From positions 1 through 64,000 of IMG/VR virus record IMGVR_UViG_2791355159_000004: 64,000 bases of DNA. One strand, written 5' to 3'. The notes beneath the pieces are model-generated. The model searched no databases. It saw nothing but the letters and a program-made list of their open reading frames with translations, and was not told where the DNA came from. Position numbers and translations under genes: made by a program. Position 1 is the first letter of the stretch. The number at the start of each line of letters is the position of its first letter. Source of the stretch: a virus. Taxonomy: Duplodnaviria > Caudoviricetes. Shown here in pieces: positions 6,942 to 48,356 of this stretch.

Positions 6942-7808
6942 TTAACTAAGCGATAAATACCTAAAACCTTTCTCTCGCATGTCGTTGTATTTATCTGTCA
7001 TATGCTGATATTTATGGCCCAGTAGTGTGCGAGTATCTATGCCCTGCACTCGATAAAGTCGCTCAGCCAGAGAGCGCTGTTCGCGGAACGGCGGTGCAGT
7101 ACAGCCGGGCGGAACTGACAGCTCGCAGCACTCACGACAAACCCTAAACCAGTGCGACAACTACCAGGTATGGATGCACCTCCCTGAGTCCGTTTGCAGC
7201 ATCAGGCCATTTGACGGACAGATAACGATGACTTCAGCGAGTAAGGTAGATATAGCCTCCAGATACAGGCTAAGCGAGAGGGCTATCTTTTCTCCCGTTT
7301 TAATCTGCGTGATATAAAGATAACCATCCCTGACGTCACGAGAATGCATACTGACTAAATCCGAGGGGCGCTGGCCGGTAACCAGTGCCAGCAGCATTGC
7401 GTTCTGAAAATAAACCGGAGCCCGGTATTTAGCGCACTTAAAAAGCTGTATCCACTCGCTGAGGCTCAGTCGCGCCGCTGCAACCGCTGTCATCGGCGGC
7501 CGGGATAAAAGGGCGGGGTTGTGTCCCATCGGTACAACGCTCGCTCGTTGCACCTCTTTGAAAAGATCGGACAGATTTATGCGGAGCCGGCGAGCTGCGT
7601 ATGAGGTTTTTTGGACTTTTTCATTGATGATGCGGCTGATCTCATAAGCCGAGATGCTCATCAACTTACGATCGCCCCAGACTCTGCAACAGAACCGCGC
7701 AAGCCTTATATAGTCCTGTACTGTTTTCGCTTTTATTTCGCCGCTGGCGTGTCTTGCCTGCACTGCGAGTGAATAGCTTTAAACCCATTTACCTACTGTT
7801 AATGACAT
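6942..7808 (-). pseudogene. lambda-Int-family tyrosine recombinase, pseudogene
   Basis: Single frame from ATG 7808 with in-frame TAA (~7780) and TAG (7161-7163). Motifs LALVTGQRPSD, EQRSLAERLY and LLGHK...MTDKY. Confidence 0.8.
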
Positions 7809-7958
7809 GATTTTCTACTCATCTGTAATTAAAGCTGCCTGCGCGGCAGTGAGATAAGTGAGGAAGGCTATTCCTGCGCTGAATGCAGTCCTTGCATATC
7901 TCTGCGAGGACTATAGAGCCTGTTGTTAACGACGAATCTCAATAAATTGTACCTACAA

Positions 7959-7983
7959 AGCTCGCTTAGGCGGGCTTTTTTTT
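7959..7983 (+). terminator. intrinsic terminator upstream of the lysis genes
   Basis: GCTCGC-TTAG-GCGGGC followed by a T run. Confidence 0.65.
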
Positions 7984-8085
7984 ATACTCAAAGTCTCCGC
8001 TGGTTCCCACCGCGCACCCTGCGCACGCCGACGCGCGGCTTTTTTCTTTTCACCCCATCGTTGCCCACACCAGAAAGGGCTGAGC

Positions 8086-8400
8086 ATGCATCGTATGGAC
8101 TCTTCATCTCATCAAATGCCGTATTGGTGGTCTGCGTGTCTGGCGTTCTTCTCAACGCTGACGCTTTACGACTGCGTTTTTTGCATCGGCGCAGCGATCT
8201 CCGCTTTCTTCACAGTCAAAACCTATTACGCCTCGCGACGCGAAAGGCGACAGCAGCTGGAGGAGGAGCGCAAGCGAACAGAGATGCTCAGAACCTATCT
8301 GGACAGCGTCATCGCTAAGCCGGAAAGCGAGCGCCCAACGGCTGCTGAAGTGGTGGCTAAAGCAACAGAAAATGCGGGGATGACAGATGCCGATACTTAA
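8086..8400 (+). CDS. holin (possible dual start M-H-R-M)
   Basis: Small protein with hydrophobic segments and a charged C-terminus, directly before the endolysin. Confidence 0.7.
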   Translation: MHRMDSSSHQMPYWWSACLAFFSTLTLYDCVFCIGAAISAFFTVKTYYASRRERRQQLEEERKRTEMLRTYLDSVIAKPESERPTAAEVVAKATENAGMTDADT

Positions 8401-23321: not shown

Positions 23322-23677
23322 CGTACGCCTGTAGCGCAGCGACAATCGGGCGTCTCTCCGAAGATATCTTCGCCCACGCCCGGGCCTGTCATCCGCAGGA
23401 GTGCTGCGGTCTGGTCATCCTGACACCGGACGACTGTCAGTATCGGCCCTGCATTAACACTTCCCCTGAGCCACACCGGCATTTTCTGATCACCCCTGAA
23501 GATTACCTGAGTGCCTCTGCCGCCGGCACGATTATCGCGCTGGTTCACAGCCATCCTGATGGGCCACCTGAACTGAGCCCTGCGGATAAAGCCGCCATGA
23601 GACACAGCGCCTGCAGCTGGTGGCTGGTGTGCGGTGACAGCATTTATCGCTTTGGAGATGAAAATGAGCTCACCTGA
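23318..23677 (+). CDS. K: tail assembly protein K, truncated (JAB domain only)
   Basis: ECCGL and VHSHP...S.AD JAB motifs; no NlpC/P60 domain before gene I. Confidence 0.75.
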   Translation: MTYACSAATIGRLSEDIFAHARACHPQECCGLVILTPDDCQYRPCINTSPEPHRHFLITPEDYLSASAAGTIIALVHSHPDGPPELSPADKAAMRHSACSWWLVCGDSIYRFGDENELT

Positions 23678-24317
23678 ATATTCATCTGAAAGGGCCCGGC
23701 CGGTTCGGGTGTGTCTGTACGGCAACCTCGGCAGGTCTGGCAGGCGCATTGATCTGCATGTGAGGACTGCGGCAGAAGCGCTGCATGCGCTGGTGATGCA
23801 GTCCGGTGAGTTCAGGCGTCAGTTCAGCGAAGGGCTTTATCAGGTGCGTATTGCCGGCAGCGATCTTGATACTGGCAACCTGCATGCCCGCCTGCATGAA
23901 AAGCTACCGTCCGGCGCAGTTGTCCATCTGGTTCCCCGGCTGCAGGGCGCTTCCCGGCGGGGCCTGCTTCAGTTGTTTGCAGGTGCCGCGCTCATCGCGG
24001 CGTCATTTATTCCGGGTCTGAATGCTTTTGCCTGGACGGTGGGCGCGACAACGCTTTCGCTGAGCGGGGCGGCTTTTTCGCTGGGGGCCAGCCTGATGCT
24101 GGGCGGAGCCGCTCAGCTGCTGGCTCCACGACCTGCGGGTGCAGATACCAGGGATAACAAAAGCACCTGGTTTTCAGGCACAGAAAACATGATGGCTCAG
24201 GGCGCGCCGGTACCAGTACTGTATGGAGAAATGCGGGTGGGGTCACGCGTAATTTCTCAGGAGATTTCCACCCGGGATATGAGCGGGGAAGGAAAGGTGA
24301 TTATTATCGGATACTGA
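23634..24317 (+). CDS. I: tail assembly protein I
   Basis: LYG.L...TAAEAL and QGAPVPVLYGEMRVGSRVIS. Confidence 0.9.
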   Translation: MTAFIALEMKMSSPEYSSERARPVRVCLYGNLGRSGRRIDLHVRTAAEALHALVMQSGEFRRQFSEGLYQVRIAGSDLDTGNLHARLHEKLPSGAVVHLVPRLQGASRRGLLQLFAGAALIAASFIPGLNAFAWTVGATTLSLSGAAFSLGASLMLGGAAQLLAPRPAGADTRDNKSTWFSGTENMMAQGAPVPVLYGEMRVGSRVISQEISTRDMSGEGKVIIIGY

Positions 24318-24469
24318 CATTAAGAGAATAAATAAGCGTTTTTTTATTACATCATTATTAGTTAATTGACTGTATTTAATTATAAAATTTGAAAAACGAA
24401 GCATGATGCTATTGCTGATAACTGACAGGATTTAAAACTAGTCAAAGCAGGTAGCCCACTAAGGTGGGC

Positions 24470-25018
24470 TCAATGTACACTTTTATTTTCGATAGATTGA
24501 CTGAAGTCCATTGTGCTTTGTATAGGAGCCGGTTCTATTGATGACAATGTGAATACAGGAATTTTGAGATGCTTACATCTCTCATGTACACCTTTATCAT
24601 GAGTCCAGACTTCATCAACACCAATCGCAATGGCTATGGCAATGATTTGTCTATCAAATTTTATTTTGTTAGCCGTTCCCTCTGTGCTGATTTTTTTTAA
24701 CTCCTGAAGTGTTGGTAATGACGCACATTCAATTGCAGCAAGCTCATCAAAAGGAGCAGTTTCAAAACAAGAAACAGATCTAATAATATTTAATCTTTCT
24801 TGTTGATGATTCTTATGTATGCCTACCAAATATTCAGCTAATACTGGGGTAGGCACAATTATCGTACCGTTTAAGCTTTCGATTCTGTCAAGCAAAGCTT
24901 CAGCTCTTCTTTTAACATCTTTAATTTGAGAACCTAAAACAGGATCGGACATTCTGTAATCATTTTCAATGTCTGACAGCAAAGGAACTAAAATATTGGT
25001 ATCTAAAATTACTCGCAA
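24470..25018 (-). CDS. PIN-domain ribonuclease (copy 1)
   Basis: ILDTN, PTPVLAEY, FDRQIIAIA and WTHDKG supply the acidic PIN tetrad. The TTG start overlaps the upstream gene by 10 bp. Confidence 0.85.
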   Translation of the reverse strand: MRVILDTNILVPLLSDIENDYRMSDPVLGSQIKDVKRRAEALLDRIESLNGTIIVPTPVLAEYLVGIHKNHQQERLNIIRSVSCFETAPFDELAAIECASLPTLQELKKISTEGTANKIKFDRQIIAIAIAIGVDEVWTHDKGVHERCKHLKIPVFTLSSIEPAPIQSTMDFSQSIENKSVH

Positions 25019-25725
25019 TTTATTACCCTCATCGTCTTGAGGAGAGAATCAGCATCTTCTTCTTCTGACCACTGGTCCCCAGGTGCTTGTTTAATAGAGC
25101 TGATTGCATCCCTGAGCGATGTCTTCTTTAGCAACGTAAAGGAAGCAATTTTCATTTTTTTTAACTCCCATTTACCCTCTCTTTTTTCCCAATTACTCTC
25201 TCCTTTTACTCTTATATTTTTGAAGAGATGTGAGCCTAAAGATGAAGCTAGTTCGGGAGTAGCCTCACACTTGAAGGTTTCCCCATTAGGGCCTTCAATT
25301 CGAACAGGAATAGAGTCATCTTTACCACCAACGCTATAAAGCCTCCCTTGGATCTCAGCAACTTTAGTTACATATAGGGGCATGTCTTTTTTTATCGTTG
25401 GGAAAGAAATGATAACAGTGTCGTTACGATCAAGCAGCTTTCCGACAAAACCATCCTGTTCAAGTAAATTTGTTAGCCTTTGGTACGAGGAGCCATTGTT
25501 CTGTGCAGCCAGAGTCGCTTTAGTAATTACAGCATTGTAAGAAATGTCATTATCAACCCATGCATTTAAATCGGCAGAGCCTTCGCTTACCGAATCAAAA
25601 TGTACAGCCTCCACGGAACCATAAAAATCCGTAAGCGCAGCCATATACTTAACCAGCTTAGCCATAGGCAATTTGCTTGGGCTGGTACCGTCAAGTTTTA
25701 AAGTGAGAGCATTGGGTTTTTTCAT
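25009..25725 (-). CDS. 238-aa hypothetical partner of the PIN gene (copy 1)
   Basis: AT-rich ORF, clearly homologous to 36896-37612. Confidence 0.85.
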   Translation of the reverse strand: MKKPNALTLKLDGTSPSKLPMAKLVKYMAALTDFYGSVEAVHFDSVSEGSADLNAWVDNDISYNAVITKATLAAQNNGSSYQRLTNLLEQDGFVGKLLDRNDTVIISFPTIKKDMPLYVTKVAEIQGRLYSVGGKDDSIPVRIEGPNGETFKCEATPELASSLGSHLFKNIRVKGESNWEKREGKWELKKMKIASFTLLKKTSLRDAISSIKQAPGDQWSEEEDADSLLKTMRVINCE

Positions 25726-26109
25726 TAATCTTTACACAACATCATAGGATCCTGTTTTCAGTATAACCCTAAACATCAGCCTTAAAGCTCATCATTCTTT
25801 GACATACAACTCTCAACTGAAAGCTGGGAGGTTAACCGGCCCTTCGACGATTACTCTTTAAGATTCATCCTAGCCTGGCTTTGCTCGCCCGCCCATCCTG
25901 ATAGATGAACAGTACTTTTTTATCATGGCGAATAGGACGGTTTATGCTGACAGAAGAAGTGCCTGTCTAAGTGAACAAGCTGCACTATCAACTCTGTCTT
26001 GTTCGCAGTGAGCGCAGGCAGAGAGAATTGAACAAGAAACACTGACACCTTCTCCCCGAACACCATAACCCGCTTAACTGCGGTTTTTTTATTTGTACAG
26101 AGGAAAGCA

Positions 26110-29100
26110 ATGCACATTTTTCATCACCATGCACAAACGCCGCATGACAAACCTGACAACCTTCGCTCCTCTCAGGTACTGAGCGTAATGGATGTTGTCA
26201 GCGAAGGCCCCGTTGCCGGTCTTGTTGACGGTTTAAAAAGCGTGCTGATTAACGGCACGCCTGTGCTTGGGCCGGACGGACAGGTGAACGTGCAGGGCGT
26301 CAGTATGCACTTTCATGCCGGAACGGCGGATCAGCCACCGCTGAGCGGATTTGAGGCATCAGCCCGGGAAAAGCTGATCAATGCTGACGTGACCGCGCAA
26401 TATGCCGTCACGCGCACGGTGGATGGAAAGGAAACAGACCGGCTTCGCCTGACGCTGGGCGTTCGCCAGCTATTCTCGGTCAACAAAAAAGGCGAAACGC
26501 AGGATGCGTCAGTCACCCTGCGAATTCTTATCCGGCATCCTGCAGGCTGGAAAACGGAAAAAGACATTACCGTGAAGGGACGTACGCACGAGCCATTTGC
26601 GTTTTCGGTGATCCTTGAAGACCTGCCAGCTGCGCCGTTTGACGTTCGCGTAACGCGTATTACGCCTGACAGCACCGGTAACCGGCTGTTCAATAAGACC
26701 TTCTGGTCATCATATACAGAAATCACCGATGTCCGGCAATGCTATCTCCATACGGCCGTGACGGGCCTGAAAATTGACTCAGAGAAATCGGGCAATCAGC
26801 GAGCGGAGCGTAATTACCTGATGCGGGGGCGCCTGGTCAGGGTGCCGGCAAATTATGACCCGGTGACGCGCCGCTATGCCGGAGAACGCTGGAATGGCGA
26901 GTTCAAAGAAGCCTGGACGGACAACCCGGCCTGGTGCCTGTATGACCTGCTGATGCACCCACGCTATGGTCTGGGTCAACGAATGGGTATTGCAGATGCA
27001 GACAAGTGGGCACTGTATAACATTGCCCGCTACTGTGATGAAAAGGTCAGTGATGGCTATGGCGGGCTGGAGCCCCGCATCCGCTGCAACGCGTGGCTGA
27101 CCCGCCAGCGGAAGGCGTTCGATGTGATCGGTGATTTCTGCAGCATGATGCGCTGTATGCCCGTATGGAGCGGCCAGCGTCTGACGTTTATTCAGGATGC
27201 GCCTTCAGATGTTGTCTGGACCTACACCCGTGCCAGCGTGGCCGGCGGCCAGTTCCACTACAGCTTCAGCGCGCTGAAGGATCGCCATAACGCGGTTGAA
27301 GTACGTTTCATCGACCCACACAACAACTGGCAGCCTTCCATAGAGCTGGTGGAAGATCGCGAGGCCATAAAGCGATACGGGCGCAATCTGCTGAAAGTCG
27401 ATGCGTTTGGCTGTACCAGCCGGGGGCAGGCACACCGGACCGGCTTATGGATCATCCAGACCGAACTGCTGGAAACCCAGACCGTTGATTTTTGTGTGGG
27501 GGCAGAAGGGCTGCGTCATATCCCTGGTGATGTGTTCGAAATTTGCGACAACGATTATGCCGGGACCGCGACCGGTGGCCGGATCATTGCAGCAGAGCCT
27601 GAGAAAAAACTACTCAGGCTTGACCAGCCTGTGTCTCTTCCAGAAGAGGGACGTGCCACGCTGAATCTGATGAGTGAGACCGGGCAGCCTGTGACCGTCA
27701 GCGTGACCGGCCATCCTGAACCTGACTGTGTCGAAGTGGACAGCATGCCTGAAGGCATAACGTCATTCAGCGTCTGGGGGCTCAAACTGCCGGGTCTGCG
27801 GCAGCGCCTGTTTCGCTGCGTGGCCATACGTGAAAGCGAAAACGGCGGCTATGCCGTGACCGCACTGCAGCACTGCCCGGAGAAACAGGCGCGAGTGGAC
27901 GAAGGCAGGCGCTTTTCAGAAAACCCGGCCAGCGGGCACGCAATGTTACCGCCCGCTGTCCGGCATCTTCATGTCAGCGTCAGCGCTTCATCCGGCCACA
28001 TTCATGCCATTGCCCGATGGGAAGTTCTGCGGACCTCCGGCAGCGCACACTTTGATGTACGGGTCACTCGTGGCCATGATGCCACGGGATATCTGGTTTT
28101 CAGCCACACAACGGATCGGCCTGAATGTGCGTTCACTCTGCCAGAAAGGGGAAGCTATACGCTGAGCGTCAGTTCAGTCAATGAGGCCGGGCAGAAAAGC
28201 GAACCTGCCTCTGCCGGTATTACGGTTGCTGCACCTGAGGCTCCCGTATCCATTGACGTCACACCCGGCTATTTCCAGGTCACGCTGGTGCCACATCAGG
28301 CCGTTTATGATGCCACTGTACGTTATGAATTCTGGTATGCCGGAACCCGGCTCGCTGACGCGCAACAGGCCGAATCTCAGGCGCAGTATCTTGGAGAAGG
28401 ACGCTGCTGGATAAAAGACGGCCTCATGCCGGGCAATGTTCACTACTTCTATATCCGCAGCGTAAACGCGCTCGGCAAATCTGCTTTTACCGAACAGGCC
28501 GCCAGGCCGAGCGATAAAGCGGAAGACTATCTGGCGTTTTATAAGGGGAAAATCAGCGACACACATCTTGGCCAGAGCTTACTGACAAAAATGGAGCAGC
28601 TGTCAGAGGGCGCCACAAAAATCGGGAAAATTGAAAAGAGCTGGAAAGACACGGAAGGGCGGCTGAATTCGCAATGGTCGGTCAGACTTGAGCAGATGAA
28701 AAATGGTCAGTACTGCATGGCTGGCTTTGGCATGGGGATTGAGGAAAAACCGGAGGGGATGCAGAGTCAGATCCTGATGGCAGCCGATCGTGTGGCGTTT
28801 GTGAACACGGAGAACGGAAACACCGTACCCGCACTGGTTATTGAGCATAATGATATCTACTTTCGTGAAGCACTTATTAAGCATCTGCGTGCGGTCAGTC
28901 TCATCAGCAGTGGATCACCTCCATCATTCAGCCTGACACCAGACGGCAGGCTGTCAGCAAAAAAAGCCGACATCAGCGGTACCTTACGGGCAACGTCGGG
29001 TGAGCTTGAGAACGTCACGATTAAAGACAGCTGCACCATTGAAGGTGTACTGGATGCAAAACAGATAACAGGTGACATTTATAATGTTCAGTCAGGTGGA

Positions 29101-29526
29101 GTGCGGTTACCCGAAGGCGCTTTCAGCTGGTCCGACAAAGAAGGAGAACATGTTCTGTTCAGAATTGCTGGCGAGTCATTTGACCGTATTCTGGATACAA
29201 ATCTGACTCTGATGGCTCAGTGCCGTAGAAAACGGCAGCAGTTTAAGTTAATCATCCGGCATCATCATTATCAAAACGAAATATATAAAGATGTCCAGCT
29301 CGCTTACGCGGATACCGGTAATAAGGGACATGCCCCAGGCATGAGTTACAAAATAAACGGAATAAACCTGCCGGCGATCGGCCGGTCGCATGTGCACGAG
29401 TTGATTGTGTACGTAGGTAACAGTAAAAGGTTTGGCCGTGTCTGGTGCTATCTTCCCCCTGGCGAGGCACCAAAATTTACGGCCTATCGCGCAGGACGCT
29501 CATTTGTTACCAGCGGGGAAGTGTAA
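26110..29526 (+). CDS. J: tail tip / host-specificity protein J
   Basis: DNL.S.Q.L...D..SEGP, AWTDNPAWCLYD and GCTSRGQAHR. Confidence 0.95.
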   Translation: MHIFHHHAQTPHDKPDNLRSSQVLSVMDVVSEGPVAGLVDGLKSVLINGTPVLGPDGQVNVQGVSMHFHAGTADQPPLSGFEASAREKLINADVTAQYAVTRTVDGKETDRLRLTLGVRQLFSVNKKGETQDASVTLRILIRHPAGWKTEKDITVKGRTHEPFAFSVILEDLPAAPFDVRVTRITPDSTGNRLFNKTFWSSYTEITDVRQCYLHTAVTGLKIDSEKSGNQRAERNYLMRGRLVRVPANYDPVTRRYAGERWNGEFKEAWTDNPAWCLYDLLMHPRYGLGQRMGIADADKWALYNIARYCDEKVSDGYGGLEPRIRCNAWLTRQRKAFDVIGDFCSMMRCMPVWSGQRLTFIQDAPSDVVWTYTRASVAGGQFHYSFSALKDRHNAVEVRFIDPHNNWQPSIELVEDREAIKRYGRNLLKVDAFGCTSRGQAHRTGLWIIQTELLETQTVDFCVGAEGLRHIPGDVFEICDNDYAGTATGGRIIAAEPEKKLLRLDQPVSLPEEGRATLNLMSETGQPVTVSVTGHPEPDCVEVDSMPEGITSFSVWGLKLPGLRQRLFRCVAIRESENGGYAVTALQHCPEKQARVDEGRRFSENPASGHAMLPPAVRHLHVSVSASSGHIHAIARWEVLRTSGSAHFDVRVTRGHDATGYLVFSHTTDRPECAFTLPERGSYTLSVSSVNEAGQKSEPASAGITVAAPEAPVSIDVTPGYFQVTLVPHQAVYDATVRYEFWYAGTRLADAQQAESQAQYLGEGRCWIKDGLMPGNVHYFYIRSVNALGKSAFTEQAARPSDKAEDYLAFYKGKISDTHLGQSLLTKMEQLSEGATKIGKIEKSWKDTEGRLNSQWSVRLEQMKNGQYCMAGFGMGIEEKPEGMQSQILMAADRVAFVNTENGNTVPALVIEHNDIYFREALIKHLRAVSLISSGSPPSFSLTPDGRLSAKKADISGTLRATSGELENVTIKDSCTIEGVLDAKQITGDIYNVQSGGVRLPEGAFSWSDKEGEHVLFRIAGESFDRILDTNLTLMAQCRRKRQQFKLIIRHHHYQNEIYKDVQLAYADTGNKGHAPGMSYKINGINLPAIGRSHVHELIVYVGNSKRFGRVWCYLPPGEAPKFTAYRAGRSFVTSGEV

Positions 29527-29733: not shown

Positions 29734-30891
29734 TTACTTCAGCTTGCCATCAAGCCAGTCTGCCCACCACTGCATCATTTCGCGCCGTTTTTCCAGATAC
29801 TGAGCATGGTTGTAAATGCCGCGGATATTATTTGGATCAGCGTGCGCCAGCTGTCGCTCAATAGCATCCTTAGGCCACAAGTATTCATTCAATATGGTAC
29901 TGAACTGATGACGGAACCCATGACCGCTCGCAATGCCACCGTAACCGATCAGGCGAATTACAGTCAGCACAGCACAGTCGCTTATTGGCTTCATCTTGTC
30001 ATTGCGTCCCGCAAATACATAAGGTGATATGGACGTGATCGGTTTCAGGAATTTGAGCAACGCAATAACCTGATCAGACATCGGCACGACGTGCATCTTG
30101 CGGCTTTTCATCACTTCTGGCTCAATCGTGATGAGCCTGTTCTCGAAATCGACGTTTTTCCACTGCATGCTTCTGAGTTCTATAGTACGCATTGCGGTGT
30201 ACTGAAGAACCTGAGTAGCGACGCGAGAAACAATACTTCCTGGATATGTTGCCAGAGCTGCATTAAAGGCTGGAATCTGGTCAGCAGGCAGGTACGGAAA
30301 ATTTTTTTTCCGGTAAGTCTGCATGGCATCTGCGAGATCAGGTGCGGGATTGTATCTGGCTCGCCCTGTCACTACGGCATACCTGAATACCTCACCACAC
30401 CGGCGACGAGCCTTGCTAGCACGCGAAAGAGCTCCACGCTCCTCAAACTGGCGCAGTACCGCAAGCAGCGTCATCGGTTCTATCTCTTCCAACTGCAACT
30501 TACCAATGTAAGGAAGGATATCATCCTTAAACATCTGCCTGACTTCAGCGGCATAGCGATCAGACCATGAGGCTCTTTTATACTTATACCACTCCTCAAA
30601 AATAGTACTGAAAGAGTCTGGCTCTTTGGTTTTTCGCAGCTTCTTCGTCGCCGGGTTTAAACCTGAAGCCAGGTCGCGCCTTAGCTCAAATGCGAGATTA
30701 CGTGCATCGGCCAGACCTATCTCCGGGTACTTACCGATGGTATGCACCTTCTCTTTACCATAATACTGATAACGGATCTGCCAGACCTTTTTACCGGTTA
30801 CCGGTACGTAAAGGTAAAGACCATTACCATCAGCAATCCGGTAAGGCTTGTCTTTGGGCTTTGCGGCGTTGATCTGTTTGATAGTAAGCAT
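29734..30891 (-). CDS. tyrosine integrase, IntS/P4 family
   Basis: MLTIKQINAAKPK (ATG 30891), DGNGLYL, HGFR, QLAH and YNHAQY; adjacent to the tRNA-Arg 3' end. Confidence 0.93.
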   Translation of the reverse strand: MLTIKQINAAKPKDKPYRIADGNGLYLYVPVTGKKVWQIRYQYYGKEKVHTIGKYPEIGLADARNLAFELRRDLASGLNPATKKLRKTKEPDSFSTIFEEWYKYKRASWSDRYAAEVRQMFKDDILPYIGKLQLEEIEPMTLLAVLRQFEERGALSRASKARRRCGEVFRYAVVTGRARYNPAPDLADAMQTYRKKNFPYLPADQIPAFNAALATYPGSIVSRVATQVLQYTAMRTIELRSMQWKNVDFENRLITIEPEVMKSRKMHVVPMSDQVIALLKFLKPITSISPYVFAGRNDKMKPISDCAVLTVIRLIGYGGIASGHGFRHQFSTILNEYLWPKDAIERQLAHADPNNIRGIYNHAQYLEKRREMMQWWADWLDGKLK

Positions 30892-30938
30892 TGGGTAAAA
30901 TCTGTACGGGTGAAATCTTTTTACCCAAAATTTACCCA
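30891..30938. promoter_or_regulatory. integrase arm-type sites (TGGGTAAA / TTTACCCA repeats)
   Basis: Inverted and direct copies lie directly upstream of the int start. Confidence 0.6.
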
Positions 30939-31053
30939 GAGGCACATGTGGATGTCAACGAACCGGGACAACCGATAGCGGAGTGGATGTAGAGGGAAGA
31001 GGTTGCTTTGTATGGACTTTACGAACTTGTACGGAGAGTAGCGAACTGAACCA

Positions 31054-31128
31054 TGGCGTCCCCTGCAGGAATCGAACCTGCAACTAGCCCTTAGGAGGGG
31101 CTCGTTATATCCATTTAACTAAGGGGAC
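31054..31128 (-). tRNA. argW: tRNA-Arg (anticodon CCT)
   Basis: Reverse complement GTCCCCTTAGTTAAATGGATATAACGAGCCCCTCCTAAGGGCTAGTTGCAGGTTCGATTCCTGCAGGGGACGCCA folds as a cloverleaf with a CCA end. Confidence 0.97.
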
Positions 31129-31323
31129 ATCGTTTCGGCGAGTTCAACGATGTGCGAACTGGTTTCTATACTACCGGAAAACCTGAGTTTTTAACAACCC
31201 TTACATTTCACATCATCTTACTTTGTTTCGATGTAAACCATATGGAAATGGGTTCGTTCACTTGCCTTTGCGTACACTTTGAGTACAGAATGCGTCAGAC
31301 CTATGTGTACAGGACATAAGACA

Positions 31324-32493
31324 GTGGCGCTCAGCGATACCAAACTCAGAAGCATTAACGGCAAACATTACAGCGGCCCCGCTGAAGTCACTGACGGGGA
31401 TGGATTGAGCGCGCGCATTACACCTACTGGCACGATCTCTTTTCAGTTCCGGTTCCGCTGGAACGGTAAGCCTGTACGCCTCACGGTTGGCCGTTACCCT
31501 GGCACATCCCTCAAAGACGCGCGCGTCATTGTCGGCGAGATGCGCGGATTGTACACGAAGGGGATTCACCCTAAAACCTACTTTGCCAGCAGTAAGGGTG
31601 AGCTGACGCTGCAGGAGTGCCTTGACCAGTGGTGGGAGAAGTACGTAGAGGGGCTAAAACAGAACACGCGCATTCTGTACAAATCTGTCGTGTACAACAC
31701 CATGTACACAGAATTTGAAGATATGCCTGTGGCCAACATTCCCGTCTCGCAGTGGGTACTCTTCTTCGATAAGCAGGAAAAGCTGAATAAGAAAAAGGCG
31801 CGGGTGCTTTTGCTACAGCTGCGGTCTGTCATCAACTGGTGCATTAGCCGGCAGCTGATCCCCTCATGTGAGCTGACAAAGCTTAGCGTCAAGAACATCG
31901 GGAAAAAGCCTGATGTGGGTGATCGCGTGCTGACTTACACCGAGCTGGCAAAAATCTGGCTGGCGCTTGAGAACAGCAAAATCGTCACATCAAACCGCAT
32001 GCTTCATCAACTGCTGTTGCTTTGGGGAGCCAGGCTGTCAGAACTACGCCTGGCAACGGCGTCAGAGTTCAATATGGATGATCTGATTTGGACCACGCCG
32101 GCCGCTCATTCAAAGATGGGGAACGTTATCCGGCGCCCGATATTTGAACAGGTGAGGCCTTACATAGAGCAGCTCCTGGCCACAAAAAATAGCGTACTTT
32201 TTCCGGGGCAGGCGCTAGATAAGGCGATAGACAGATCGTCGTCGAACCTTTACATGAAGAAATTACGTAGCGGAATTGAAATACCCGAGTGGCGCACTCA
32301 CGATTTCCGGCGCTCGCTTGTGACGAATTTATCCAGCGAAGGGGTTATGCCTCACGTTACGGAGAAGATGCTGGGGCATGAGCTGGGTGGGGTGATGGCG
32401 GTCTATAACAAGCACGACTGGTTAGAAGAGCAGCGTAAAGCATATGAGCTCTACGCCGATAAGATATTCTGGCATGTCAAACAGCTCGGTTAA
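31324..32493 (+). CDS. tyrosine integrase
   Basis: Likely GTG start at 31324 (ALSDTKLR); DGDGL, GARLSE, HDFRR, LGH and VYNKH. Confidence 0.92.
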   Translation: MALSDTKLRSINGKHYSGPAEVTDGDGLSARITPTGTISFQFRFRWNGKPVRLTVGRYPGTSLKDARVIVGEMRGLYTKGIHPKTYFASSKGELTLQECLDQWWEKYVEGLKQNTRILYKSVVYNTMYTEFEDMPVANIPVSQWVLFFDKQEKLNKKKARVLLLQLRSVINWCISRQLIPSCELTKLSVKNIGKKPDVGDRVLTYTELAKIWLALENSKIVTSNRMLHQLLLLWGARLSELRLATASEFNMDDLIWTTPAAHSKMGNVIRRPIFEQVRPYIEQLLATKNSVLFPGQALDKAIDRSSSNLYMKKLRSGIEIPEWRTHDFRRSLVTNLSSEGVMPHVTEKMLGHELGGVMAVYNKHDWLEEQRKAYELYADKIFWHVKQLG

Positions 32494-35445: not shown

Positions 35446-36345
35446 AAAAAAGCCCGCCTTACACGGGCATGAATTCGTTCAAGATGAAAGGGAAATCCAG
35501 AATGCCAGCCTAGCTGGCTTTGCCACCATATAGCTTTTGCAACAGATAGATACTACGGGACACTTTTGCTCTCAACACAGCACGATACAGGTGTGGACAC
35601 AAAAAAAAGCCCGTCACTCGAGGAGAGATGACGGGCAACGTGGTAGATAGCGAGTTGCTTTTAGAATCCCACCCATGACACACGATTTATCTGGCTAGTC
35701 TACTCATAGTAACAACCGAGCTTCACTATACAAGCGTAGCGGTTGATTAAATTAGCCATTACGCTGCAGAGACAAAAAAGCCCGCTCAGTGGCGGGCAAA
35801 GTGGTTCAGCACAGGATTAACCTGCAAATCTCGTACAGCTTACGCGCAACATCCTGTATGCGTGTAGCCATTACAGGTTAGGAGTGTGTGAGGTCTTGCG
35901 ATGTGGGAATGGTCCTACAAGTCATGAAGTTAGGATTGTTCTGGCAAGAGGAGTTGGCTTAAAAAAGCCCGCTCTATGGCGGGCAAGAAGACACAAATTC
36001 CAATGGGGAAAGCCATCGCACACAGCAAATAATGTGCTTTCAAAGCATAGGCTACTGCCGCTACGTTGTTGTGAAATATAGCGTAGTAATTTTACTCGTC
36101 AGGATTATGTTAGTTGATGTATTGAAAAGAAAAAAGCCCGCGCATAGCGGGCCAACCAGCTTTATTTCATATTGTCTTGTCGTTATGGGTGCCACTGAAT
36201 ACCAGAGCAAAGAGGTTAACGGCGACATAGCTGATAACTTTAGAGCAGCATCAAAAAAGCCAGCACGAGGCGGGCAGAGATGCTGTATAAAGTCTTTTTT
36301 AGCCTTCAGGCCATGTCTCTTTGGACATTATGTTATCGGCAGGAA
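35446..36345 (-). ncRNA. array of six putative small-RNA units, each ending in a GCCCG...CGGGC-T-run terminator
   Basis: Hairpins start at 35452, 35609, 35780, 35967, 36136 and 36259 (spacing 123-187 bp), all oriented for the minus strand. The bodies are unique, with promoter-like motifs upstream. Confidence 0.7.
36216..36242 (-). promoter_or_regulatory. sigma28 (FliA) promoter
   Basis: TAAAGTTA-N11-GCCGTTAA, against the consensus TAAAGTTT-N11-GCCGATAA. Confidence 0.7.
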
Positions 36346-36359
36346 GGGCTGAATAGAAA

Positions 36360-36905
36360 TTAGTGGAGATTGGAAGAAAGATCTTGCCCCAAATCAATCA
36401 ATCCCTGAATTGGGGCCGGGTCTATGTCTGCAAGTGACTTAACTACAATCCCTATTTCTTTGCAGCGATTAAATACGCCTTTGTCATGGGTCCAAACCTC
36501 ATCAACATTAAGAGATTTAGCTATAGCTATGATTTGCCGATCAAATTTCACTTTATTCGCAGTATCAGACTGCATCATAAGTTTTAATTCTTTTATGGAT
36601 GGCATTTGAGCACATTCTAAGGCTGCGATTTCATCGAAGCTGGCGATTTCAAAGCAAGCTTGCTGCTGAATCAACTTCAGATGAGTTTGGTGCTCTTTTT
36701 TATCAATTCCTACGAGGTATTCTGCTAAAACAGGAGTGGGAATGATTATCGAACCGCCACTGCTTTCGACCATATCGATTAAGGCTTCGACCCTTCTTGA
36801 AGGATCAGGGATTTCTAATCCATTTTCAGGGTTAGTTAGCTTGCATCCATCTTTCATACCTGTGATGGCCTGCACCAAAATGTTGGTATCGAATATTATT
36901 CGCAA
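36360..36905 (-). CDS. PIN-domain ribonuclease (copy 2)
   Basis: IFDTN, PTPVLAEY, FDRQIIAIA and WTHDKG; TTG start with a 10-bp overlap. Confidence 0.85.
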   Translation of the reverse strand: MRIIFDTNILVQAITGMKDGCKLTNPENGLEIPDPSRRVEALIDMVESSGGSIIIPTPVLAEYLVGIDKKEHQTHLKLIQQQACFEIASFDEIAALECAQMPSIKELKLMMQSDTANKVKFDRQIIAIAKSLNVDEVWTHDKGVFNRCKEIGIVVKSLADIDPAPIQGLIDLGQDLSSNLH

Positions 36906-37612
36906 TTTAGCGCCCTTAAAGCTTTCAAGATGGCTTGAGCGTCATCTTCTTCTTTCCATTGATTACCAGAGGCATTCTGTAATGCCTTAAAAGCAGTCTT
37001 CAAATTGGATTTTTCAAGAACTTCGTAGGAGTCAATTATTAATTTTTTAAGCTTCCATTTGCCATCTTTCTTTATCCATTCGCTATCACCTGAAACTCGC
37101 AGTTGCTTGAAAAGCAATGCACCTAACTTAGCAGCTAGGGCTGGCGTGGCTTCGCAATGATAAGTCTCCCCATTAGCGCCCTCAAGTTTAACTGGCGCCG
37201 AATCATCTTTACCACCAACATTATAAAGCTTCCCTTGAACACGACCTTTTTTTCGGATGATCAATGGTGCTTCTTCATTAAATGATGGGAATTCAAGGAT
37301 AGTAACTTTATCTTGATTAATTATTTTGGCTTCAAAGCCGTCCTGGGCCAAAAGAGAAACTAATTTTAAATATGAGCTTCCAGATGTAGCTGCTTGAGAT
37401 ATTGAGCGTTGTATAACCGCATTATATGAGCTTTGGTTATCAACCCAAGTGTTCAGACATGCTGACCCCTCGCTCACATCTTTAAAGTGAACGGCATCTA
37501 CCGAGCCATATAGGTCAGATAGTGCTGATAGATACTTGCCAAGACGCGCCATACTAAGCTCGCTTGGGCTTGTTCCATCAAGTTTTAAGGTCAGGCGGTT
37601 ATCTTTGCCCAT
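36896..37612 (-). CDS. 238-aa hypothetical partner of the PIN gene (copy 2)
   Basis: Homologous to 25009-25725 (LTLKLDGTSPS, VSEGSA, VGGKDDS, CEATP, NCE*). Confidence 0.85.
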   Translation of the reverse strand: MGKDNRLTLKLDGTSPSELSMARLGKYLSALSDLYGSVDAVHFKDVSEGSACLNTWVDNQSSYNAVIQRSISQAATSGSSYLKLVSLLAQDGFEAKIINQDKVTILEFPSFNEEAPLIIRKKGRVQGKLYNVGGKDDSAPVKLEGANGETYHCEATPALAAKLGALLFKQLRVSGDSEWIKKDGKWKLKKLIIDSYEVLEKSNLKTAFKALQNASGNQWKEEDDAQAILKALRALNCE

Positions 37613-37752
37613 GGATTATTTACAGCCTCAACATCAGATTAAAAATCCCATTATCACAACTTCATTGTTGTGCATCACTGATCTGCCGTCAACGCGTTTG
37701 TGCTCAAAAAATTCTTATCTTTTTGAACTCACCCAAACGTCTCTTCCGGCCA

Positions 37753-37920: not shown

Positions 37921-38634
37921 TTAGCAGAATGTCTCCTCCGGCCACTGAGCCTTAACTACTTTCCCTATGATGCGGCAGCTGTGGTCACAGTCCAGAATTC
38001 TATAGGACGGATTGAGCGGCACAAGATAGCTTACACCGGCATCCTTCTCATACTTCTTAAAAGTTACCTCAGAGTCAGCGTTTGCTGATGCCACACAGAA
38101 ATCGCCAGTCTCGACCGGCTCTGCTGGGTCTATCAAAATCAGCATGCCTTCAGGGAAGCTTGGGCGAACGCCCTGCGGCGCGGTCATTGAGTGACCTTTG
38201 ACTTCAAGCCAGAATGCTTTATCGCTGGCCTTCTTGGTTGTCGGCACCCATGCTTTCGCATCTCTAGATGTAAAACTACCCACCTCAGAAAAATCACCAG
38301 CCTGGACATAAGTGAACAGGGGGTATTCATAATGATTCGGGCGAGAGCTTTCCTCGCCAATCGACTGATACATTTCAGCGATCTCAGCTGCGATTCTCGG
38401 ACTGAACTCACCAACATTAACTTTCAAAAACCTTGCTAATGCTGAGGCGTTGCTGGGATTTAGAGCGTTTACGCCATTCAACAATGATGCAACTGCTGAC
38501 TGACCAACGCCTAAGGCGTCCGCCACCGACTCTTGGGAAATGCCCAACTCAGATTTTTTGCGCTCATAGATTGATTTCAGCCTTTGCGCATCTTCGATTT
38601 GCTCAGTAGTGAGCGGTTTTTTCTTTGCATTCAT
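37921..38634 (-). CDS. cI: CI repressor, lambda-like (HTH + S24 peptidase)
   Basis: KKKPLT arm, SQESVAD..G.GQS, VQAG cleavage site, G.SM and FKK. Confidence 0.96.
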
Positions 38635-48019: not shown

Positions 48020-48204
48020 ATTTCCACACAATACCAAAGGCATTGAGCGCAGACGCTTATAAGGTCTGTCCAGGACTGCAAACCTGTAGCGCCTTTCATA
48101 TTGTGATAAATACCTAAATTTACCCTGTTGCCGACGGGCAAGGCTGTTACCGCGATTTGCGTCAGGGTATCTTATTGTTACTCTTTGATTTAGATTGGAG
48201 CTAA

Positions 48205-48308
48205 TGCGGTGAATCCCCCTCAGCGGCGGGGCTAGGTCAGTAGAAGTGATTGTTTAGCGACTCAGGATTCTCGCCTTACTGAGTCACCGGGAGGCACCCG
48301 GCACCGCA
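48205..48308 (+). ncRNA. second C4-like cloverleaf RNA (late leader)
   Basis: TGCGGTG/CACCGCA closing stem; shares GGTGAAT and the 21-nt CACCGGGAGGCACCCGGCACC with 34546-34677. Confidence 0.6.
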
Positions 48309-48356
48309 GGCTTATCACAACAATTTCAAAACCATCAGATGTTACGATCACATAGA

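Follow-up and report, generated by a model that had tools for sequence, protein, structure and literature searches.

A candidate mobile PIN nuclease module with a new partner architecture occurs as two diverged copies in two neighbouring prophages of one genome

Introduction

Two recently described defence pairs come closest to the genes analysed here. DS-5, described in the DefensePredictor report (Science 2026, PMC13092281), is a PIN-domain protein encoded with a DUF5830/AcrIF4-like partner in the accessory DNA of E. coli, and both the PIN catalytic residues and the partner are needed for defence while deletion of the partner is not toxic; the same text credits a recently validated PIN domain and HipA kinase to its reference group 10, 33-35, which includes Brenes & Laub 2025. 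HEC-03, described in the preprint by Payne et al. (10.1101/2024.01.29.577857), is a validated defence pair of an ABC ATPase and a VapC-like PIN effector. Here we analyse a two-gene cassette, in which the gene of a PIN-domain nuclease follows the gene of a 238-amino-acid (aa) partner protein. The window is the whole stretch of phage DNA that was analysed, 64,000 nucleotides long (positions 1-64,000 of IMG/VR record IMGVR_UViG_2791355159_000004, to which all coordinates refer), and the genome that contains it carries exactly two copies of the pair, here called A and B. A literature search, which took in PMC13069673, PMC12366544 and PMC13586616 and left the DS-5 sequences themselves uncompared, turned up no account of this partner together with a PIN protein, and we present the pair as a candidate mobile PIN nuclease module with a new partner architecture.

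The pair shares with DS-5 a two-gene make-up of a PIN nuclease and a larger partner other than VapB, and with HEC-03 a VapC-like PIN effector whose partner is unrelated to VapB. Its likeness to VapBC lies in a PIN domain with four acidic residues, an overlapping upstream partner gene, carriage on mobile elements and the VapC-family labels given to relatives by NCBI. Other likenesses are of place, to exclusion genes that are expressed in the lysogen. In phage lambda, rexAB lies directly after cI, which is also the place of copy B, of the pair in phage Ostro and of three further loci (L007, L011 and L012). The E. coli homologs of the pair lie beside mnt in the immI region, as does sieA of P22 (PMC10883804). 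No sequence or fold relation to RexAB or SieA was found or expected, and these likenesses concern only position and probable timing of expression. Finally, the report on HepS of prophage Gifsy-1 (Nature 2026, PMC13043305) describes a prophage-borne abortive-infection RNase that, in a polylysogen, must spare its own prophage and yet strike others; there one HEPN protein acts alone, with the tail-tip protein J as its trigger, whereas here a PIN protein stands with a separate partner.

Results

Two diverged pairs share one layout

In copy A, the partner gene (25009..25725, minus strand) is a 238-aa open reading frame (ORF) whose product ends in VINCE before the stop and matches phrog_19868 (E 2e-103), and the PIN gene (24470..25018, minus strand) is a 182-aa ORF with a TTG start that matches the Pfam PIN family PF01850 (E 2e-7) and phrog_21691 (E 3e-64). 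Copy B consists of a 238-aa partner ORF at 36896..37612 on the minus strand (phrog_19868, E 1.6e-109) and a 181-aa PIN ORF with a TTG start at 36360..36905 on the same strand (Pfam PIN, E 1.4e-6; phrog_21691, E 5.1e-66). The two genes of copy A overlap by 10 bp (25009-25018), the TTG of the PIN gene lying inside the last 10 bp of the partner gene, and the overlap in copy B is likewise 10 bp. The partners align without gaps over their full length with 131/238 identical residues (55%; BLASTP, E 1e-90), and the PIN proteins share 95/178 residues (53%; E 7e-72). A sequence-only reading of this DNA had described two diverged pairs with the same partner length, the same NCE end and the same overlap, and had quoted six motifs shared between them; the ORFs and the BLASTP alignments bear out the description, and all six motifs are visible in the alignments. 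At the nucleotide level the copies are 58-59% identical within the genes, and the DNA similarity is limited to the genes and about 25 bp upstream, fading beyond.

The same reading had called for a pairwise alignment and a dN/dS comparison, and these give proportions of synonymous differences (pS) of 0.81 and 0.77 for the two genes, which are saturated, and a proportion of nonsynonymous differences (pN) of 0.31 in both genes. As pS is saturated while pN remains at 0.31, the comparison indicates, at the level of sequence, that the copies diverged long ago under purifying selection. The idea that one copy might have degenerated can be set aside, as every ORF of A and B is intact and both copies keep every invariant column of the two protein families.

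The PIN protein is a predicted nuclease with a complete active site

Both PIN proteins score above the PF01850 cut-off of 23.6 bits (PIN A, 32.1 bits; PIN B, 29.3 bits). Four residues, D6, E62, D122 and D141, are invariant in 48/48 aligned relatives, the two window copies included, and we take them, from general knowledge of PIN domains, to be the four acidic active-site positions. By its sequence, the PIN protein is thus a predicted nuclease with a complete acidic active site. The matches to phrog_21691 cover positions 1-166 of 168, and this PHROG family is of unknown function. Many of the relatives are named 'type II toxin-antitoxin system VapC family toxin' by NCBI. Against the NCBIfam VapC models, the PIN protein stays far below the cut-offs (NF047863, 19.3 vs 140 bits; NF047959, 14.3 vs 80; TIGR00028, 12-13.7 vs 73.6), and a profile search of solved structures in the PDB with the PIN family gave no match at E 0.01.

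The first of the four acidic residues depends on where the gene is taken to begin, since D6 lies in the first 22 residues, which are present only with the overlapping TTG start. The public gene call of PIN A (P0205) begins at Met23 and gives a protein of 160 aa without Asp6, leaving out window positions 24953-25018, and many PIN relatives are given in the databases as proteins of about 165 aa. Gene callers probably miss the overlapping TTG start systematically, removing the first catalytic aspartate.

The two genes are strictly linked and their translation appears coupled

Among 15 genome loci found with the partner profile, a PIN homolog lies immediately downstream of the partner gene, overlapping or within a few bases, in 13. 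The two exceptions are a locus with a frameshifted partner and a PIN gene cut to 61 aa (L016) and a partial match of 42 residues (L017), so that in the only decayed case both genes are broken. When the intact partner genes from all sources are counted, namely the genome loci, the window copies, the E. coli locus, phage Ostro, two plasmids and the loci of the genome sample, the PIN gene comes next, overlapping or a few bases from the stop, in 24/24 (22/22 and 2/2); two of the 24 (L024 and L025) belong to a single genome and are identical. The start codon of the PIN gene is TTG or GTG at the mapped codon in 17/22 loci and TTG one codon upstream in 2; it is ATG in the two plasmid genes, and the start in Ostro is unmapped. 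A GAGG/AGGG ribosome-binding site for the PIN gene sits within the last codons of the partner gene. As judged from the sequence, this partner-first layout with a weak PIN start would yield more partner than nuclease.

The two proteins have also diverged together, the partner and PIN identities across 22 loci being correlated with a Mantel r of 0.93 (0/2000 permutations as high), a figure that is inflated by the common ancestry of the loci. Fused partner-PIN forms were sought among proteins of 432-2000 aa and none was found, a negative that counts as weak evidence. A predicted protein of 319 aa (P0109), outside that size range, has the partner running on in one frame into about 70 N-terminal PIN residues; a true fusion, a frameshift and a sequencing error are all conceivable explanations. 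Three other long partner forms (P0152, P0188 and P0111) look like over-extended start calls.

The partner is an unnamed family with a predicted ferredoxin-like domain and OB-fold

Neither partner A nor partner B matches any Pfam family (E 1), NCBIfam family or PADLOC family, and Pfam scans of 62 diverse and 48 closer relatives of the partner gave nothing consistent. The matches to phrog_19868 span positions 1-238 of 239, and this PHROG family too is of unknown function. A word-based search placed the partner family in 54 clusters in Enterobacterales and Pseudomonas, and a full search with a hidden Markov model (HMM) found 1,582 representatives (clusters at 50% identity) at E 0.001, 340 of them at 1e-30; among the 150 HMM matches listed, nearly all are 220-260 aa long. 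Weak Pfam matches to TCAD3 (PF19972) were seen in 9/48 partners, with a best E of 0.0018; the term is absent from the main text of Kaur et al. 2020.

The AlphaFold2 model of the partner (predicted local distance difference test score, pLDDT, 81) has three parts. An N-terminal alpha/beta domain of residues 1-110, which folds alone with a pLDDT of 85.5 and a predicted TM-score of 0.80, is a ferredoxin-like sandwich of a generic kind (best Z 6.7, with no match at or above 8), and Foldseek returned 0 matches for it at E 0.001. Residues 117-201 form an OB-fold with Z 8-9.6 to single-stranded-DNA-binding protein (SSB), PriB, RPA, the MCM N-domain and the anticodon-binding domains of tRNA synthetases, and many viral OB proteins are SSBs. 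The C-terminal tail is helical and of low confidence, with pLDDT <50 from residue 215. On this model, the predicted fold of the partner is a ferredoxin-like domain followed by an OB-fold and a short C-terminal tail. The partner profile found only short, Kelch-like chance matches among PDB sequences, and the top Foldseek match of the partner in BFVD was a DUF6575 protein with a TM-score of 0.35 and a root-mean-square deviation of 11.

The partner appears to set the pair apart from described PIN systems

The partner appears to differ from that of DS-5 in having no DUF5830 (PF19148), which matched 0/48 members at E 10, and it is on this basis, not by direct sequence comparison, that the two are set apart. 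DUF5830 also gave 0 matches in the E. coli chromosome that carries a homolog of the pair, and PF19148 finds nothing in 401 genomes of the bacterial family to which the window belongs; since the model matches nothing in these genomes, the assignment of DUF5830 to DS-5 was probably made by more remote homology. An hhalign comparison with AcrIF4 (JBD26 gp37, as a single-sequence template) gave probabilities of 0.05% and 0.23% with two alignments of the partner, and AcrIF4 is not among the 50 structural matches listed for the partner model. From HEC-03, whose partner is an ABC ATPase, the pair differs in that the Pfam scans of 48 and 62 partner members brought up no ATPase family and the structural matches of the partner model include no P-loop fold.

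The bicistronic layout of VapBC is present here, with an overlap or a gap of a few bases in 13/13 intact profile-found loci. The difference from VapBC lies in both proteins, since the partner is a 238-aa protein with a ferredoxin-like domain and an OB-fold and without an AbrB, RHH, HTH or PHD domain, and the PIN protein is far below the VapC cut-offs, with a profile that finds no solved structure at the threshold given above.

The copies were acquired separately

In the trees of both proteins, copy A groups with the version from an E. coli P22-like prophage (support 98/99 and 99/99) and copy B with the versions from Hafnia psychrotolerans and Pantoea coffeiphila (100/98 and 97/98), to which it is up to 88% and 84% identical. 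Because each copy groups with relatives from other genera, the sequences indicate that A and B were acquired separately and not by duplication.

The pair is thinly spread. It is present in 2/400 other species genomes of the same bacterial family, in 2/399 scored genomes of the class (one further genome was not scored), in 33/5,426 complete E. coli genomes, in 2/50,697 phage records and in 9/72,556 plasmid records, several of which are chromosome-sized. A megablast search of the locus against the phage records gave no match, and neither the phage nor the E. coli collections contain a close relative of the tail region.

Both pairs occupy swappable prophage slots

Pair A lies between tail genes, with the gene of tail assembly protein I on its left (23634..24317, plus strand; phrog_32, E 1.6e-59) and that of the central tail fibre or host specificity protein J on its right (26110..29526, plus strand; phrog_31, E 0), and it is antisense to both, as the PHROG matches show and as the sequence-only reading had placed it. 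A sister prophage in a genome of the same genus (G445) has the same tRNA-Arg (100% over 76 bp) with an integrase region that is only ~69% identical, and it matches the window at 95.6% up to position 24310 and at 90.8% from 26066, with 2,189 bp of other DNA between. The low-GC cargo insert of slot A is therewith delimited to 24311..26065, with a GC content of 0.42 vs 0.55-0.60 in its flanks. The cargo of the sister in this slot (L030; G445:C12, 5666-7882) encodes an Arc-like repressor and two antirepressors, ANT/KilAC and Bro-N/P22_AR_C. An immI-like module thus stands inside the tail operon (I-J) of this lambdoid prophage, and the same type of module adjoins the PIN pair in the E. coli P22-like prophages. 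The homology restarts 44 bp upstream of the start codon of J (26066-26110), and J therefore retains its own upstream region to the right of the cargo slot.

Pair B lies directly after a CI-like repressor gene on the same strand (37921..38634, minus strand; phrog_4 transcriptional repressor, E 3.3e-52). On the far side of the repressor gene are Cro- and CII-like genes. Related CI genes are found in 8/74 further genomes of the genus, and the window's own genome contains a second such gene. The slot behind CI holds different cargo on the CI strand in 5/5 related prophages annotated: PDC-M11A in one (E 5e-134), PDC-S42 in another (E 5.5e-85), a 180-aa protein with a weak DUF6978 match and a 258-aa protein with DUF1828 and a weak PDC-M24B match (9e-8) in a third prophage of the window's genome (L040; G000 contig C6, 10101-13535), and, in the other two, a SocA/Panacea protein with a 134-aa partner and an unassigned 340-aa protein. 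Three of the five slots thus match PADLOC candidate defence families, or four when the Panacea-type pair is counted. The C-terminal domain of the L040 CI protein is 85% identical to that of the CI protein of prophage 2, which carries copy B. Just upstream of pair B, a stretch of 22-35 bp at 37720-37754 matches, at 92-100%, the 3' ends of CI genes in related prophages and is similar to the last part of the window's own cI (~37925-37946). To judge from its sequence, an earlier cI end appears to have left it behind, some 170 bp downstream of where cI now stops.

The base composition of both pairs differs from that of their surroundings, with a GC content of 0.35-0.42 vs 0.55-0.59 in the tail genes, and a GC content at third codon positions of 0.25-0.39 vs 0.59-0.62 in the flanks (0.59-0.60 in I and J). 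We read both pairs as moron cargo in swappable prophage slots, with a composition unlike that of their flanks. The proposal of the sequence-only reading, that a mobile moron was acquired twice at different cargo hotspots, is supported by the divergence and the trees, the composition, the I-J slot and the post-CI slot.

Similar places hold the pair elsewhere. It comes directly after a CI-like repressor gene, on the same strand, in Pseudomonas phage Ostro and in 3/15 further loci (L007 in Halomonas, L011 and L012 in Pseudomonas), and at L013 a CI-like gene is adjacent on the opposite strand. In E. coli, the two matches examined out of 33 lie in P22-like prophages, between DNA-transfer genes and mnt/arc/ant. 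The gene order of P22 is sieA-orf59a-mnt (PMC10883804), and the position of the E. coli pair is the sieA neighbourhood of P22. Two loci (L004 and L005) have primase-helicase genes upstream of the pair (DUF5906/VapE-like; DUF927 with Toprim), and two plasmids carry the pair, one adjoining a XerD recombinase gene and the other between insertion sequence (IS) elements. In Buttiauxella gaviniae (L003), a HEPN_RiboL-PSP-like gene at 7347-8108 (minus strand; E 1.9e-5, below the Pfam cut-off) adjoins the pair, with ordinary chromosomal genes around. A survey of homolog neighbourhoods, as the sequence-only reading had suggested, thus finds CI-adjacent, P22-like-prophage and plasmid carriers, together with some ordinary chromosomal spots that are taken up in the Discussion.

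Candidate transcription signals at the two copies

A TATACT hexamer is present upstream of partner A on the minus strand (25765-25760), as had been claimed, but its role as a -10 element of the pair's own promoter is not borne out: the consensus scan called no promoter at this site, and the copy A region holds 2 promoter-like sites vs 5.3 +/- 2.6 in shuffled sequences. Much the same holds for the hairpin that had been noted. A 7-bp stem with a 4-nt loop does exist at 24453..24470 (minus strand), and its first base is also the final one of the PIN A stop codon (centroid fold, -12.4 kcal/mol), but a reading of it as a terminator is unsupported, with no T-run, no terminator call and a z of -1.35, 19/200 shuffles folding equally well.

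Upstream of partner B, the consensus scan finds a promoter-like site, TTGACG-17-AACAAT, at 37664..37692 (minus strand; 9/12 matches), in a region where the number of such sites is not above that in shuffles. The element has near-identical counterparts ahead of the B-type modules at two loci in other contexts, L004 and L005, and is thus present in 3/3 B-type loci. Because it recurs upstream of modules in different contexts, the B-type cassette may carry its own promoter, in addition to possible read-through from cI. About 200 bp downstream of PIN B, a terminator-like hairpin with a T-run (36135..36153, minus strand) has 7 pairs, 6 of them G-C, followed by TTTTTCTTTT, and L040 has this stretch again, at the far edge of its slot. 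Rfam found no RNA family at locus A or locus B.

Further features of the window

A tRNA-Arg(CCU) gene at 31054-31128 (minus strand) lies between two integrase genes, at 29734-30945 (minus strand) and 31279-32493 (plus strand), that both point away from it; two integrases diverging from one tRNA-Arg(CCU) gene therefore mark two prophages back to back at one tRNA. Next to pair B, a 106-aa ORF at 36032-36352 (plus strand), convergent with PIN B, has no match in Pfam, PHROGs or PADLOC. Inside prophage 2, a match to the gammaproteobacterial small RNA STnc100 lies at 48174-48349 (plus strand; 59.3 bits vs a gathering score of 47).

Discussion

The strict linkage of the two genes, their coupled translation, the complete active site of the PIN protein, the co-divergence of the two proteins and the purifying selection on both fit a two-protein unit, in which the partner would control the nuclease. 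We propose, with a confidence about evenly balanced between acceptance and doubt, that the pair is an undescribed toxin-antitoxin-like abortive-infection or exclusion module expressed in the lysogen; this reading is suggested by the positions of the pair, which are those used by lysogen-expressed exclusion and defence genes, and by slots that hold candidate defence genes. In the mechanism that we envisage, each locus would be a self-contained two-gene cassette carried as prophage cargo, with translation of the PIN protein coupled to that of the partner through the overlapping, weak TTG start. The partner would be produced in surplus and, by binding the PIN nuclease, would hold it in a harmless state. 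When another phage infects, the partner would be disturbed, either by a nucleic acid or protein caught by its OB-fold or N-domain or by loss of the partner itself, and the PIN nuclease, freed or activated in this way, would cut RNA and stop the infection. The binding of the partner to the PIN protein, RNA as the substrate, the part of the partner as inhibitor or sensor and the outcome in defence are all steps that we infer, and a sensor in the OB-fold or the N-domain is a possibility raised by the structural model.

Several observations weigh against an abortive-infection or exclusion role. None of the four window proteins matches any of 5,027 PADLOC models. The invariant residues of the OB-fold are mostly glycine or acidic, which is atypical for a single-strand-binding face. 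The partner-first order with a weak nuclease start is exactly the layout of an ordinary type II toxin-antitoxin system, and on its own it does not favour defence over addiction. Nor does co-divergence count at face value, given the shared ancestry noted with the Mantel figure. A candidate for the inhibitory contact, the nearly invariant Arg233 in the tail of the partner as an antitoxin-like plug of the active site, was rejected, since its codon overlaps the ribosome-binding site of the PIN gene and its conservation therefore cannot be read as that of a plug. At L009 and L014/L015 the genes around the pair are ordinary chromosomal ones, and none of the annotated neighbours is a marker of mobile elements or defence; the figures given above are plain tallies of prophage, mobile and defence contexts.

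The pair could instead be an ordinary type II addiction module, VapBC-like with an unusually large antitoxin, in which the partner neutralises the PIN toxin and is degraded faster than it, and which stabilises the prophage, satellite or plasmid that carries it without a dedicated anti-phage role; we regard this as possible, if somewhat doubtful. The order of the genes, their overlap and the weak TTG start of the nuclease are as such a module would have them, NCBI gives VapC-family names to many PIN relatives, the pair is found on plasmids, by a XerD recombinase gene or between IS elements, the low-confidence C-terminal tail of the partner could bind the toxin, and the single decayed locus (L016) has lost both genes. 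However, Pfam finds no DNA-binding antitoxin domain in the partner (0/48 and 0/62 members), which the model shows as a well-folded two-domain protein of 238 aa, the PIN protein is far under the NCBIfam VapC cut-offs (19.3 vs 140 bits; 14.3 vs 80), and the slots are those with candidate defence genes in related prophages. Addiction and defence are not mutually exclusive, so that this explanation overlaps with the favoured one. The abortive-infection or exclusion reading could, on the other hand, be extended to a new and widespread two-component anti-phage system, in which the OB-fold partner senses phage nucleic acid or a replication intermediate and licenses the PIN RNase and in which the two copies are orthogonal, each prophage guarding the cell and itself independently; we think this rather unlikely.

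A role in the phage life cycle or in counter-defence, with a nuclease and a nucleic-acid-binding subunit that process phage or host RNA or DNA at induction or infection, seems improbable to us. It draws on the resemblance of the partner's OB-fold to SSB, PriB and RPA domains, many viral OB proteins being SSBs, and on the place of both proteins in PHROG families of phage proteins. Yet the pair is rare and patchy (2/400 genomes of the family, 2/399 of the class and 2/50,697 phage records), a sister prophage with the same tail genes is without it, it is antisense to the late operon, and its carriers include plasmids and plain chromosomal sites. Its rarity, its absence from the sister, its antisense position and its plasmid and chromosomal carriage therefore mark the pair as dispensable cargo and not as a core phage function. 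That copy A, copy B or both are inert remnants of earlier insertions is very hard to credit: the promoter scan calls none for copy A, as a relic might lead one to expect, but both ORF pairs are intact and lack none of the invariant columns of the two families, pN lies far below pS, and the coupled TTG start and the ribosome-binding site have been kept.

PIN nucleases with partners other than classical antitoxins have only recently been shown to defend, in DS-5 and HEC-03, and an abortive-infection or exclusion module of the present kind would bear on how such partners control or trigger the nuclease. The family analysed here is unnamed in Pfam, NCBIfam and PADLOC despite its 1,582 representative partner clusters, and in Enterobacterales and Pseudomonas the pair lies after cI and beside mnt, the textbook sites of exclusion genes in temperate phages. 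If the two copies, 54% identical, are orthogonal, neither partner would control the other's nuclease, and each copy may even act against induction of the other prophage. One genome with two old, intact and co-diverged versions of the pair offers a ready test of partner specificity and of cross-talk between co-resident prophages.

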